Shown here in pieces: positions 13,090 through 23,411 of a stretch of DNA of 24,220 bases. A program made the position numbers and the translations under genes. Each line of letters starts with the position of its first letter. Position 1 is the stretch's first letter. Source of the stretch: a virus (taxonomy: Duplodnaviria; Caudoviricetes); the IMG/VR virus record IMGVR_UViG_3300035548_000196, positions 1-24,220 of that record; one strand, 5' to 3'. The notes below the pieces were generated by a model. That model was given only the letters and a program-made list of their open reading frames with translations. It made no database searches and had not been told where the DNA came from.

Positions 13090-14988
13090 TTAGTTGGTAA
13101 GGGCGTCCTTCATGACGGCGAAGGACTCTTCGTGCCGGATGCCGATGTCGCACAGGGCGTAGCTGGTGACCTCGATAAGGCCCTGTTTCTTCTTGCTGTA
13201 CGGATCGGCCAGAATTTCGACGACGCCCCACTCGCCGATCATCAGGTCGGCCCAGTTGCCGAAGATGATGGCCGAGCAAACGGCGTTGGCGGTGCCCTTG
13301 GACAGGTCGCGGGGGACCTGGTTGGACGCCCCGGCGGTGTAGCCGTTCATCATGCCGAATCCCGGTTCGTTGCCGTCCTGCCAGATAAATTGCGCGGTTC
13401 CGGCAGCCTTCACGGTCTGCTTGAGCTTCCCGCGCGTCTTGGCGTTGGTCAGGTATGCCAGGGTGCCGACGTCGGCGTTCGCCGTGGCGACCGCGCTTTC
13501 CAGGTCGACGATGTCGCCCCAAACCGGGGCCGCGCCGTTGTCGCCGCCTACGACCATACCGATACCGGACGTGTTCAGGATGCCGGTAGGCTGGTAGCCG
13601 ACGCCGGTTCCGGCGATGGCCGCGAAATCCAGGCCCAGGGCGTTGATGGTGGCGAGGTCGTTACGAACGAAAAACTCGATGTCGGGCGACGACTGCGCGA
13701 GCAGTTTTTTCGTGTAGGCCGTGGTGGCGGTAGCAGCCTTCGGGCTCATGTCGAGCTGATCGAAACTTGCTTCGGATTCGTCGCCGTCGGAACCGGGATT
13801 TTCGCCCACCCACGACAGTTCAGCGCTTCCGGTGTTTTTCGGGAAAGCCAGGTCGCCGGTCAGCCCGGCCAGGACCATCGCGCCGAGCCGCTTGACCATC
13901 ATGCGGTTGCGAAGCAGTTCGATCATGGACATCTGTTCGGTCGGCACCAGGGCACCGCCGGTCGCCACCGTGCCGGTGTTCAGCGGGGCACGCTGCTGAA
14001 CCATGTCCGGGGTGAACCGCAGATTCGTCGGCACGAAAATGCCCTCGGTGTCCCTGCCGAGTTTCTTGGCGATGGTGTCGGAAATCTCCCGCTCGTAGCA
14101 GGAACCGCCGTTCAGGCTGGAACGGATGGCCGACAGGATGGAATACTGTCGGTTTTCCTTGTCGTTCAGTTCCGGGGCGACGGGGGTGAACTTGCGCGGC
14201 TTGCCCATCTTTTCGAGAATGTCCTTGCGGAAATCGGCGACGGAAGTGTCGCCGTTTACGGCTTCGGTCGCCATGTCGCGCATGTCGAACATCTCGCCGA
14301 TGGCGGTGATTTCGCGGATGCGGGCAGCCTCTTCGCGCTTGGCCTCTTCGCGGGCCGCGTTGACGTCGACCACCGGGGCAGCGGGTTCGCTGCGGACGTC
14401 GGTGGCGGGGGTGTGCTGGTCTTTCTTCTCGGGCATTTTCTTTGCTCCCTCGATGGTGATTTGGTTGATGTCGTTGTCTGCGTCCCTGCCGACGCCGACA
14501 GAAGTATCGGCGGGTATCGAGACGATGGATATTTCGTAGGGTTCCCAATCCATCGCTCGGTATGTCTCGTCGTCCTCGTCGGTCTTTTCCAGGATCATCC
14601 GGTAAATCCGATAGCCGACACTGACCAACGTGCGGATACCGTCTTTCACGTCCTGGAAGATTTCCTCGGCCCGCGCGCTTTTCCCAAAGCGTGCAACGGA
14701 CCGCCCCTTGCGGTCCGTCCCGATTTCAACCGATTTGACGACGCCGACTTGATCACGGCGGTCGTGATCCATGAGAATGGCTCCGCCGTTGCGCAAACGG
14801 GCAAGGCGGACGCTGCCGGGGGAATGGTCAAGAATTTCGTTCCCGAACCACCGCCCGACAGGCTCTTCCGAGGAAAAGGACAGTTCGACGGTCCGTTCCT
14901 CTTCGTTTACCGCCTCGCGGTTAAGGGCGAACTCGCGGTAAAGCGGGCCGGACTCAATCGTCCTTGTCTGAAGACTCTGCTTCGGCAC
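13090..14988 (-). CDS. Fused prohead protease (HK97/U35-like) plus major capsid protein
   Basis: N-terminus has ILMDHD, VSVGY, WEPYEISIVSIPAD..VGVGR. C-terminus is HK97-fold (GGALVP, WVGE, QPTGILN, IIFGNW, IRHEESF). GTG start at 14988 after AGGAGG. Confidence 0.92.
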   Translation of the reverse strand: MPKQSLQTRTIESGPLYREFALNREAVNEEERTVELSFSSEEPVGRWFGNEILDHSPGSVRLARLRNGGAILMDHDRRDQVGVVKSVEIGTDRKGRSVARFGKSARAEEIFQDVKDGIRTLVSVGYRIYRMILEKTDEDDETYRAMDWEPYEISIVSIPADTSVGVGRDADNDINQITIEGAKKMPEKKDQHTPATDVRSEPAAPVVDVNAAREEAKREEAARIREITAIGEMFDMRDMATEAVNGDTSVADFRKDILEKMGKPRKFTPVAPELNDKENRQYSILSAIRSSLNGGSCYEREISDTIAKKLGRDTEGIFVPTNLRFTPDMVQQRAPLNTGTVATGGALVPTEQMSMIELLRNRMMVKRLGAMVLAGLTGDLAFPKNTGSAELSWVGENPGSDGDESEASFDQLDMSPKAATATTAYTKKLLAQSSPDIEFFVRNDLATINALGLDFAAIAGTGVGYQPTGILNTSGIGMVVGGDNGAAPVWGDIVDLESAVATANADVGTLAYLTNAKTRGKLKQTVKAAGTAQFIWQDGNEPGFGMMNGYTAGASNQVPRDLSKGTANAVCSAIIFGNWADLMIGEWGVVEILADPYSKKKQGLIEVTSYALCDIGIRHEESFAVMKDALTN

Positions 14989-19522: not shown

Positions 19523-20122
19523 CCTGCCGGTCCTGACGGCGAAGGCGAACGCCTTGGCAAAGTGGCCCGCGAAGGTTTTGTCGACGACGCGGCGGGCGTC
19601 TTCGTAGAAGTCAAAGCGTTGCTCGACGCGGGCTTTCGGCTTGAGGACGTAAGCAAGGCGGATATGCTTACCCTTCCGTCCATACCGCTGATAGACGGCC
19701 TTGCCGCGCCCATGCAGGTCGGCCACAAATGAGTTTCGCAGGTTGCGCGGACGCTTGGCCTTGCCGATTCGGCCTGAGGCCGTGCGCTTCATATTCCTGG
19801 TAGGTATGGCGAGGTTGCTGCCCTCGGGCGTCTTGGTTCCGCCTTGCGCCTGACGCTCAAGCCATTCTCGACCAAGACGGTCGTAAACGCGGCCTTCCAG
19901 CTTGCGCTTGCTGGCCTTGCCCACGCGGAAGGATGCACGGGCGAAATTCCTGTTTCTTACCTTGAACGCTTTACGGTAGGTGCGCTTGACCGTATTCTCC
20001 CGGATATCAAAGCACGTCGAGTTGATGGCCGAAGCAGTTGCATACGGCAGTTGTTTACGAGACAGCCCGAGGAGAAACGGGCCGAGGACTCGACCGATAT
20101 TGCTTTTGACATTGATTTTCAC
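19517..20122 (-). CDS. Basic phage protein, gpZ/neck-completion-like
   Basis: KQLPYATASAIN motif, very Arg/Lys-rich, 201 aa. Confidence 0.6.
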   Translation of the reverse strand: MKINVKSNIGRVLGPFLLGLSRKQLPYATASAINSTCFDIRENTVKRTYRKAFKVRNRNFARASFRVGKASKRKLEGRVYDRLGREWLERQAQGGTKTPEGSNLAIPTRNMKRTASGRIGKAKRPRNLRNSFVADLHGRGKAVYQRYGRKGKHIRLAYVLKPKARVEQRFDFYEDARRVVDKTFAGHFAKAFAFAVRTGRR

Positions 20123-20391
20123 GGCCTGTTGCCCCGCCTGTACTCGTCTTTGAACTCTTTCATCAGACGATAGATGCCATCGACTCGTTCCATGACAACG
20201 TTGATCTTGATGGCGTTATCGCGTCCTCTCTGTTGCTCCTGTTTGATCTCGCAAATTGCGGCCTCGGCTGCGTCCATGCGCACGGAATACGACGCTTCCA
20301 TTCGCCCGACGTACAGCCCAAGGGCGATAGCGACCGCCAGGATTGAACCGACGGTCGCCACGTTGATCCGCGTGTCGATTTGCAGGGCCAT
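20119..20391 (-). CDS. Single-TM coiled-coil membrane protein (holin/antiholin- or i-spanin-like)
   Basis: TM VATVGSILAVAIALGLYV followed by coiled coil; lysis-module position. Confidence 0.6.
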   Translation of the reverse strand: MALQIDTRINVATVGSILAVAIALGLYVGRMEASYSVRMDAAEAAICEIKQEQQRGRDNAIKINVVMERVDGIYRLMKEFKDEYRRGNRP

Positions 20392-20565
20392 CTATTCGCC
20401 TTCGGCCAGGTCGGGAAGGTCGCGCACGTCCTCGGTGCGGGCCTCGTACTCTTCCAGGGTCGGGACCTCGTACCCGTCGGCGCACAGCCGTTCGGTGATT
20501 TCAGCGAACGTGTAGCCAACCTTGATAGCCGCAGAAATGAACGTGATGATTTCGGTAGCGACCAT
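20392..20565 (-). CDS. Small hypothetical protein, 57 aa (below ORF-track cut-off)
   Basis: MVATEIITFISAAIKVGYTFAEITERLCADGYEVPTLEEYEARTEDVRDLPDLAEGE; fills the gap between neighbours; AAGGGGG RBS. Confidence 0.75.
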   Translation of the reverse strand: MVATEIITFISAAIKVGYTFAEITERLCADGYEVPTLEEYEARTEDVRDLPDLAEGE

Positions 20566-20567
20566 GA

Positions 20568-21203
20568 CTATTCCCCCTTCTCGGTCAGTTGTGCGATCTT
20601 GGCCCAGGCGTCGGAGATGAGAACGCGGATGCGAGCCAACTGCCCGTCGTATTCACCCGGCTTGACCTGCGTAGCCTTCCAAATGGCAACACTTTCGCGC
20701 ACCATGACTAGGGCATCGCGCCCCTCGTCGAGGATGGGGGCCACGTTGGTCTTGATCCACTCGGCCTTGTCGGGGCCGAGCGTATCGACGAGGTCGACAT
20801 ACTCGGCTCGTACAGCCTCATAGGCATTCGTGGCCTCGTCGGTCACAACGATGGCCTTGTCGACGGGGCTGAGATTTTCCAGGGCCGGAGCGACATTCTT
20901 GACGCACCCGGTACAAACCATGACTAGGAGAGCCAGGAGGGCAAACCCGGCGATGAGCGGCGGGCGAATAAACCCGCTCTTGTACTTGTCAAAGTCGACG
21001 GCGACCGTGCCGTCCTTGGACTTGGTCAGGATCGTCGGCTTGCGGAAGTTCAGGGCGATGAAGTCAACCACCTTGAGCAGGTAGAACAAGACACGATTGT
21101 CCACCTTGTTCGGGGTGATCTGCGCCACGACGGAGAACAAGGCAACGGCCAGACAGACGGCCAGCCACCAATGTTCGATTAACAGGGCAATAACGTTGTC
21201 CAT
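20568..21203 (-). CDS. Membrane protein: holin-like N-terminus plus internal lipoprotein signal and helical domain
   Basis: TM1 then ITPNKVDN...KVVDFIALN; second hydrophobic run LIAGFALLALLVMV-CTG-C100; AAGGGAG RBS. Confidence 0.7.
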   Translation of the reverse strand: MDNVIALLIEHWWLAVCLAVALFSVVAQITPNKVDNRVLFYLLKVVDFIALNFRKPTILTKSKDGTVAVDFDKYKSGFIRPPLIAGFALLALLVMVCTGCVKNVAPALENLSPVDKAIVVTDEATNAYEAVRAEYVDLVDTLGPDKAEWIKTNVAPILDEGRDALVMVRESVAIWKATQVKPGEYDGQLARIRVLISDAWAKIAQLTEKGE

Positions 21204-21218: not shown

Positions 21219-21380
21219 TTAGGCATAGATGAGCCAGCCGACGGCGTGCTCCCACCACGAAGAAAGAAGGCGGGCCGTCATTTCGGACAGACCCGCCCCC
21301 CGGAGGCGGCAATACACATGAAGGCCGTTGCACGTATGCTGTAACTTTTGCTTGATGCGTTTCATCACGGTCAAAATCAT
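21219..21380 (-). CDS. Small hypothetical protein with LQH..N.LHVYCRL motif
   Basis: Co-oriented ORF ending 15 nt before the next gene; start uncertain (21434, 21380 or 21365). Confidence 0.6.
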   Translation of the reverse strand: MILTVMKRIKQKLQHTCNGLHVYCRLRGAGLSEMTARLLSSWWEHAVGWLIYA

Positions 21381-21550: not shown

Positions 21551-22051
21551 CTATTTCTTGTATTTGGCCTTGGAATCAAGCTTGACCGGGATACTCCCAC
21601 TGGTTTCGGGGCTCTCAAAATAGAGCGACACCGGCCATTCGTCTTTTTCTCCTTTGTCGAACATCAAAAAGCCCTCCACGGATGTCCCCGGCAATACCTT
21701 TGTCGCCTTGAGGGCATGCAGCTTCATCCACGGAAGATTGTTCTTCAGGCCAAACATCTCGGAACTGAAGCTGTAAGACTTCCTGGCAGACGACGCCAAG
21801 GTGAAGTATCCGGGGTTGACGTTGACCGGCTTATTCATGCCGTTTTCTATGGTCACGTATACGATTTGGTATTGCGACAGGTAACTCCCTTTAAAGTCCT
21901 TTGTGTTGTCGTTCGCCAGGCCGTAACTCAAATCCTCGCGGAACAACATCGGCTCAATGTCTGTCGCAGATATGGACACGCCACCAGCCAGGACTGGGGC
22001 GGCACATATCAAGACAATCGCGAGCGACAGGATAGCGGATAAAAAGCGCAT
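21551..22051 (-). CDS. Exported protein, DUF4352-like beta-sandwich (moron)
   Basis: Sec signal peptide (MRFLSAILSLAIVLICAAPVLA); V.VTIEN......VNP..FTL and VLPG.SVEG.L.F pattern; AAAGGAGG RBS. Confidence 0.72.
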   Translation of the reverse strand: MRFLSAILSLAIVLICAAPVLAGGVSISATDIEPMLFREDLSYGLANDNTKDFKGSYLSQYQIVYVTIENGMNKPVNVNPGYFTLASSARKSYSFSSEMFGLKNNLPWMKLHALKATKVLPGTSVEGFLMFDKGEKDEWPVSLYFESPETSGSIPVKLDSKAKYKK

Positions 22052-22537: not shown

Positions 22538-22759
22538 CTACTCCGGCGGCGTGGCCGGTGTCCAGTTCCCGTTTATCAAGCCGTGAATCTCGCTCTTAGG
22601 TATCAGCCGCTTGTGGACCGGGCGGCAACTCGAAACCCGCCGGTCGCGGATCATGCGTTCCACTGTGGACGGATGCACGCGGAGGATGTCCGCCGTTTCC
22701 TTGATCGTGTAGAAAGACGTTTCCCCTTTTGCGGGGGTGTTCCTGCCTCTGTTTTTCAT
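22538..22759 (-). CDS. Excisionase-family/HTH_17 DNA-binding protein
   Basis: FYTIKETADILRVHPSTVERMIRD...RLIP..EI. Confidence 0.82.
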   Translation of the reverse strand: MKNRGRNTPAKGETSFYTIKETADILRVHPSTVERMIRDRRVSSCRPVHKRLIPKSEIHGLINGNWTPATPPE

Positions 22760-22787
22760 CGCTGTTTTCCCTTTCGCCTCCGGGAAA

Positions 22788-23411
22788 TCAGGAGTTCATA
22801 AAAGCGTCCTGGACGTCCTCGTCGGCAAACTGGACATAGGCCATAAGTGCCTCTTGCGTCTTGTGCCCGGTACAGCGTTGCAGGACATGGAAAGGCACCT
22901 CTTTGCCCGGCGTCCAATTCTCCGTCAGGTAGTCCAATTTCTCTTTGGCAAAGGTCTTGCGCATGAGCCCATGCGTCCCGACCTGCCCTTCGATCCGGCG
23001 CAACCGCACCGGGGCCACGCAGTCGCGCCAGGCTTGAACCCGGTCTATCGGGTGGTTCCCCTTGGCCCGGCTCTGAAAAAAGTAGTCGTCGGGACGCCAG
23101 TACCCGCGCTCCTTCAAGTCTTCGAACTGCGCAAGCACATGGGGCGCGACATCGGGGTGAATGGGCACGGTCCGCCCGTCCGCCTTGCCCGCCTTGCCGC
23201 CCTTCATGCTCTGCCGCTCGACGGTCACGGTCTGCCGGACCTGGCCGTCGTGTATCAGGTCGCGGATACGCAGGCTCAAGAGTTCCGACACGCGAAACCC
23301 GGTCTTGCGCCCCAGGATCAACAAAGCCTTGGTCCGCAACCGGTTCGGCCCGCGCACGGAATGGAAGACCAGCGACCATTCCTTTTTGCTGAGAGGGCGA
23401 CAACCCTTCAT
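22788..23411 (-). CDS. Second tyrosine recombinase, catalytic domain only (207 aa)
   Basis: TGFRVSELLSL, MKG, THGLMRKTFA, TGHK, AY; ATGA overlap with upstream gene. Confidence 0.88.
   Translation of the reverse strand: MKGCRPLSKKEWSLVFHSVRGPNRLRTKALLILGRKTGFRVSELLSLRIRDLIHDGQVRQTVTVERQSMKGGKAGKADGRTVPIHPDVAPHVLAQFEDLKERGYWRPDDYFFQSRAKGNHPIDRVQAWRDCVAPVRLRRIEGQVGTHGLMRKTFAKEKLDYLTENWTPGKEVPFHVLQRCTGHKTQEALMAYVQFADEDVQDAFMNS

Follow-up and report, generated by a model that had tools for sequence, protein, structure and literature searches.

Can a single phage gene deliver both an inner-membrane protein and a separate lipoprotein, with the host's own lipoprotein-processing enzymes making the cut? 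The question is raised by a 211-residue protein encoded in a viral record of 24,220 bases, which was analysed in its entirety and is called the window here. The window carries lambda-like head and tail genes, and its homologues with a taxon name belong to Pseudodesulfovibrio, Desulfovibrio oxyclinae and Halodesulfovibrio; these taxa point to a host among the Desulfovibrionales, and the phage likely infects sulfate-reducing bacteria. Sequencing runs with at least half of the sampled words of the window were oil-field metagenomes, and no RNA run was among the runs listed for these words. Metagenome contigs showed no differences from the window, with the fusion junction spanned only in the one run that may be the source of the window. 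On the minus strand the fusion gene is followed by genes for a 57 aa, a 90 aa and a tail-type protein and then by the terminase genes (Table 1).

Table 1. Features of the fusion gene and its neighbours in the window
Feature	Coordinates	Strand	Description	Basis
Fusion gene, 211 aa	20568..21203	(-)	Membrane module, internal type II signal and helical lipoprotein domain	ORF and homologues
TP..DN membrane module, residues 1-56	21036..21203	(-)	Putative membrane module	phrog_9685 (unknown function), stand-alone relatives of ~60 aa, charge pattern
Internal signal-peptide-II-like n- and h-region, residues 73-99	20907..20987	(-)	Predicted type II signal	Aligns with true N-terminal signals of stand-alone relatives
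Lipobox C97-T98-G99-C100	20904..20915	(-)	Predicted lipobox	Cys in 82/82 rows; Gly/Ala/Ser at -1 in 81/81
Predicted mature lipoprotein, 112 aa	20571..20906	(-)	Three-helix bundle, net charge -6	Model, pLDDT 93
57 aa partner protein	20392..20565	(-)	Amphipathic N-terminal helix, acidic tail ending LPDL; no signal peptide	Alignment
90 aa TM and coiled-coil protein	20119..20391	(-)	Candidate holin (or i-spanin)	Slot comparison with relatives
53 aa upstream gene, H-x-x-C motif	21219..21380	(-)	Module membership uncertain	Tied to TP-type loci

The fusion gene and its internal lipobox

The fusion gene starts at an ATG preceded by a ribosome-binding site (duplex -8.0 kcal/mol), and in its product a basic linker joins the membrane module to the internal type II signal. 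According to hydropathy and charge scripts, the source of all topology calls given here, the protein has hydrophobic segments at residues 14 to 30 (mean Kyte-Doolittle 2.36) and 83 to 99 (2.53), and a borderline segment at 37 to 53 (1.52) that is amphipathic and includes Lys44 and Asp47. An initial annotation, made from the letters alone, had described a transmembrane segment with a TPNKVDN...ALN stretch in the N-terminal ~55 residues, a full signal peptide II at about 73 to 100 with no start codon just before it, and ~110 aa of helices after Cys100. Each of these elements was recovered: TPNKVDN occupies residues 30 to 36 and ALN residues 50 to 52, K73-Y-K75..R80 lies ahead of the h-region and C97-T-G-C100 at its end, no in-frame ATG, GTG or TTG occurs between codons 45 and 95, and residues 100 to 211 model as a three-helix bundle from an 82-row alignment. 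The full-length model, built from 5 rows, is unreliable before residue 110. Three other viral records, at 90-92% identity, carry the same open frame, and the fusion is therefore not an assembly artefact.

Searching 1.84 billion representatives with a profile produced 121 matches; 67 extend to the C-terminal domain and were taken on, and the remaining 54 cover the N-module alone. Among 74 proteins (these 67 plus seven closer homologues), the lipobox lies far from the start in 45 and near the start in 29. One or more of the 29 are fused proteins with a wrongly called start, and the 90% cluster of P0021, which appears solo by its protein, includes a fused member of 194 aa. Since solo calls from proteins alone are unreliable, architecture counts are restricted to loci with DNA. 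The alignment used for conservation (A6, 82 rows) includes 14 added locus-derived rows and excludes six fragments or very long rows. G99-C100 was invariant among the first nine homologues, and in A6 the Cys is present in every row, at the column of the lipobox that stand-alone relatives carry in an ordinary N-terminal signal. As in Sec/SPII lipoproteins, this Cys comes after a basic n-region and a hydrophobic helix. The initial annotation had named a Cys100 that is not conserved as the observation that would speak against it; the invariance found instead lends comparative support to its proposal of an internal lipoprotein signal that Lgt and LspA could process. The residue at +2 is Ala in 59 rows, Ser in 11, Gly in 6, Val in 3, Thr in 2 and Pro in 1, with Asp in none. 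In E. coli, lipoproteins with Asp at +2 stay in the inner membrane, a rule that may not apply in the present host.

The lipoprotein domain belongs to no family in Pfam, PHROGs or NCBIfam. A tblastn search of 50,697 annotated phage records returned no match, as did a phylum-wide sample of 400 further genomes at E 1e-5; matches in the ESM Atlas were unnamed clusters only, and a metagenome scan with the stand-alone protein P0011 gave one short partial locus. Structurally, a fold search with the domain found no PDB match at E 0.001. The best VIA Z, 11.6, was to a designed three-helix bundle, an ordinary score for helical bundles, and the one BFVD match (A0A0F7L4W3, TM 0.82) is an uncharacterised protein.

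Fused, split and exchanged architectures

Among 401 genomes of the host order, matches were found in 36 genomes at 40 places, 32 of which were examined (two further copies in G269 and the six weakest were excluded); with the window added, this gives 33 loci. The two parts are fused in 24 of them, split in 7, and in 2 the lipoprotein is solo. In all seven split loci, a TP- or LPxP-type membrane gene of 56-63 aa overlaps (TAATG/TGATG) the ATG of an ordinary lipoprotein gene, with the two parts in the same order as in the fused loci. These are the split homologues that the initial annotation had proposed to look for, and the fusion proteins are fusions of genes that are normally adjacent. The overlap of stop on start in 7/7 split pairs is also comparative support for the annotation's idea of a 1:1 output from one gene. 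Two features were absent from that annotation: the N-part is swappable, and a third small gene, here called the partner, lies directly downstream. An unrelated two-helix module (SKT..YGR type) replaces the N-part in 18 fused loci, with TP-type fusions numbering 6 across the 33 loci.

In a tree of the mature domain (39 rows; the trees quoted are quick trees), the split loci group together in a single clade (support 98) with a fused TP protein as neighbour (95), and as one lineage the seven count as a single event. A single clade of TP-fused rows was rejected (AU p 0.025, with an earlier tree already viewed and long branches present), and the architecture changes at least 10 times on the quick tree. 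Because the tree is unrooted, fusion and fission are not distinguishable.

A search for longer relatives of the TP module gave 20 new proteins, 11 of them with an internal lipobox. The mature parts of these proteins fall into six groups that have no BLAST match at E 0.001 to one another or to the window lipoprotein. Since the TP module and an internal lipobox serve six unrelated cargo groups, the layout is a reusable design and not a single accident. The lipoprotein cargos of P0146, P0149-P0156, P0158 and P0159, all behind a TP module and an internal lipobox, are without a Pfam match. Further arrangements were observed in individual proteins and loci. In P0141-P0145 and P0147, the TP module is in frame with a coiled coil and a C-terminal TM of the type found in the holin slot, either a real fusion or a read-through gene call. 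In P0014 and L046, a low-complexity linker of more than 100 residues separates the SKT module from the internal signal, which indicates that linker length is free. In L045 (2001-2204), a 68 aa two-helix membrane gene follows rather than precedes a solo lipoprotein, possibly a reversed pairing.

The N-part had been annotated as holin-like, a description that found no support: the TP module matches only phrog_9685, of unknown function, and no holin family in Pfam, PHROGs or NCBIfam, a separate holin is present in related loci, and the likeness is one of size and context. The SKT-type module weakly matches PHROG holin families (E 3e-5 to 0.04).

The TP module has one TM followed by an amphipathic helix and is predicted to be N-out, C-in. 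In 43 of 45 fused proteins, K/R outnumber D/E in the loop ahead of the internal h-region. In the TP/LPxP types the N-terminus is acidic or neutral (15/15), with one upstream helix in 10/15 and a borderline second segment in 5/15, including the window's protein; in the SKT types it is basic or neutral (25/25), with two upstream helices in 23/25. From these charge patterns, the linker would lie inside and the Cys outside in both layouts. Six of 16 N-module relatives, picked mainly by length, have by eye an apparent cleavable leader before the module, consistent with N-out. A different cleavage, by type IV prepilin peptidase at G77|F78, was considered and rejected. The consensus for that enzyme is a conserved Gly|Phe site with Glu at +5; here there is no Glu at +5, and G-F/Y occurs 14-32 residues before the Cys in only 11 of 45 fused proteins.

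Lysis-region setting and the partner gene

For the genomic context, 197 neighbouring ORFs were listed, and 77 chosen by eye plus 13 more were scanned. Across 29 loci (L018-L046), an SLT, GH108, M15 or Hydrolase_2 match is present in 9, DUF5675, which we take to have an endolysin role, in 3, and a holin match (LydA or holin_4_1) in 9, with three below the Pfam cut-off. An endolysin or holin Pfam match lies within 1.5 kb in 19 of the 29 loci, in agreement with the candidate lysis polyprotein of the initial annotation. The order in L014 is holin, GH108 endolysin, fusion, partner. In the group closest to the window, an M15-type gene lies 2 to 5.5 kb upstream (Pfam E 2e-5 in L010; the gene of L012 is 66% identical to that of L010). 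The window ends 3 kb upstream of the fusion gene, and no endolysin lies within it.

The partner has no family in Pfam, PHROG or NCBIfam. Of the 33 loci, 28 have a partner-type gene of 57-94 aa, with an amphipathic helix at the N-terminus and an acidic tail, after the lipoprotein, and 5 lack it; the partner profile was built from 24 of the 28. Partner-like genes with no lipoprotein nearby occur in 10 places in 6 genomes, and visual inspection suggests that they no longer have the LPDL motif at the end. These copies (L088-L090, L092-L098) mostly have a zinc-ribbon gene on one side and a Mor-like or tail gene on the other, at similar sites in the 6 genomes, and are possibly domesticated prophage remnants. 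On the other side of the fusion gene, the 53 aa H-x-x-C gene, which has no family match, lies just upstream in 12 of 13 TP/LPxP loci and in none of 18 SKT loci.

Proposed mechanism and competing readings

The findings are best read as a processed lysis module, to which we assign a probability of about 0.5: the host would lipidate Cys100 and cut before it, giving an inner-membrane piece and an outer-membrane lipoprotein that would act with the partner to breach the outer membrane at lysis. Judging from the charges, the chain would insert with the linker cytoplasmic and Cys100 on the periplasmic face. Processing at Cys100 by Lgt, LspA and Lnt, along the pathway outlined in PMC8689077, is quite probable given its conservation, and the +2 residue would, by the E. 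coli rule, lead to Lol sorting to the outer membrane. Context makes a role of the module in lysis likely. The last step, in which the module instead of Rz/Rz1 would disrupt the outer membrane once holin lesions have let the signal-less partner into the periplasm, is a hypothesis that we hold to be nearly an even bet. The lipoprotein would wait in the outer membrane until the arriving partner completes or opens its bundle to break the membrane, and the membrane module would meanwhile act at the inner membrane. The reading as a polyprotein is well supported by the comparison of relatives, and the outer-membrane role of the lipoprotein is our best guess.

Rather unlikely, in our view, is that the protein is processed as proposed but that the product is a lysis accessory or regulator (of timing, endolysin release or superinfection exclusion) and not an outer-membrane breaker. 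A six-frame lipoprotein scan for Rz1-like genes found none in the window, in three related, larger viral records (G402-G404; 27-35 kb; 80, 70 and 37% complete) or in 28 of the 29 loci; the same scan did pick up Rz1 in L044, as well as seven of the nine stand-alone lipoproteins already known. This lack of another spanin candidate argues against an accessory role, as does the position of the module after the endolysin or beside the holin in most loci. The remaining locus, L044, is the main result against spanin replacement: there, a distant solo lipoprotein stands beside an ordinary Rz/Rz1 pair (NCBIfam P2_Rz1, Pfam LysC), and the lipoprotein can therefore coexist with spanins. An accessory role would also fit the many different cargos that pair with the TP module, the 2-5.5 kb between module and endolysin-like gene in the window's own group, and the action of small membrane proteins such as LambdaSo Lcc6 at the holin step, as described in 10.1101/2024.01.23.576932.

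The chain might instead stay uncut, as a single and perhaps lipidated protein of the inner membrane with its helical bundle held in the periplasm. The mean length of lipoprotein signals is 16-26 residues according to PMC8689077, a length found in the split relatives and exceeded in the window, where the Cys is at position 100; the literature search found no tested internal lipobox in a phage; and Cys at -3 is off the [LVI] consensus (Cys in 6/82 rows of A6, Leu in 32/82). This reading is nonetheless improbable. The same box sits on an ordinary signal in stand-alone relatives, and an uncut anchor would not need Gly/Ala/Ser-Cys at a fixed place across relatives of ~15-35% identity.

Quite improbable is a separated two-component spanin in unusual order, with the lipoprotein as o-spanin and the 90 aa protein two genes downstream as i-spanin. 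By its context the lipoprotein is linked to lysis genes, as an o-spanin would be, and the 90 aa protein combines an N-terminal TM and coil with a weak match to the Rz-like phrog_7686 (E 0.042). Against this, LydA holins fill the slot of the 90 aa protein in 8 loci, head or tail genes directly follow the partner in L014/L026 and L021, and the lipoprotein has no sequence match to any Rz1 family. Finally, it is very unlikely that an internal restart makes the lipoprotein and that the fused frame is a by-product of a lost stop codon: of 22 fused loci, 13 have a possible start 15-35 codons before the Cys, and in a few of these a good ribosome-binding site goes with it (L034 -10.7, L014 -6.6), but the window and 9/22 fused loci have no ATG, GTG or TTG there, so that restart is not general, whereas each of the nine split or solo loci offers an ATG whose site scores -5.5 or better.

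Returning to the processed module, its closest known relatives in design are found in several systems. In Bradyrhizobium FbcH, a membrane and an exported domain of a respiratory complex are made in one chain and separated by host signal peptidase I. The present proteins would share this arrangement of one chain separated by a host signal peptidase; unlike in FbcH, the gene is a phage gene and cleavage would take place at a type II lipobox. The two-component spanins (lambda Rz/Rz1; PMC6139136) are likewise an inner-membrane protein followed by an outer-membrane-type lipoprotein, translationally coupled and in the slot after the endolysin. Unlike in Rz/Rz1, a periplasmic coil is missing from the membrane part, the lipoprotein, a predicted 112 aa helical bundle, has no Rz1 match, the two parts frequently share one chain, and a small third protein is encoded next. 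The TP module cannot bridge the periplasm as Rz does, with almost no periplasmic part: the region after its TM is basic and predicted to be cytoplasmic, in contrast to the N-terminal TM and periplasmic domain of an i-spanin. The unimolecular spanins (T1 gp11; PMC6139136) also give an inner-membrane anchor and a lipoprotein from one gene. Their order is opposite, an N-terminal lipobox and C-terminal TM in one spanning chain, whereas here the lipobox is internal, no C-terminal TM follows (hydropathy after residue 100 is below 0.7) and cleavage would separate the parts.

The partner resembles the disruptin phiKT gp28 (10.1101/515445) in size (57 vs 56 aa), in being amphipathic without a signal and in occurring in phages with no detected spanin. 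Disruptins are small cationic amphipathic peptides and gp28 acts alone, whereas the partner has a net charge of -10, making it acidic, and is linked to a lipoprotein. The TP module, for its part, is comparable by description to LambdaSo Lcc6 (10.1101/2024.01.23.576932) and to small holins, as a ~60 aa membrane protein of lysis regions; unlike small holins, it has no holin-family match and separate holins are present.

The lysis-region module is real and conserved, and apparently undescribed. A full-text literature search, mostly without subscription papers, found no account of it, nor of any phage lysis gene with an internal lipobox; the spanin tables that accompany PMC6139136 could bear on its novelty. 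In that spanin survey, 91 of 677 phages had no recognisable outer-membrane step, and other topologies, including N-out/C-in membrane proteins, were left aside. The module is a concrete, small and clonable candidate for phages with no recognised outer-membrane step, and its internal lipobox is invisible to searches for an N-terminal signal. Speculatively, and at odds that lean against it, the module may represent a further class of outer-membrane disruption, in which an inner-membrane module, a helical-bundle lipoprotein and a holin-released partner would replace spanins in phages of sulfate-reducing bacteria, the first two repeatedly made as a polyprotein cut by LspA at an internal lipobox, in a design serving several unrelated cargos. 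With fused and split versions both occurring in nature, it can readily be tested if Lgt and LspA act on a lipobox that follows one or two additional membrane helices.

Other features of the window were recorded beside the module. A 207 aa short tyrosine-recombinase gene and an HTH_17 gene (22538-23411, minus strand) precede it, an arrangement that recurs in many relatives (L018-L020, L023-L025, L028, L060), and the window also has an integrase at 323-1183. A DUF4352 secreted protein (21551-22051, minus strand) occupies a variable slot that holds an unrelated small lipoprotein in L010. A single fused gene at 13090-14985 (minus strand) combines the prohead protease (S78) and the major capsid protein.
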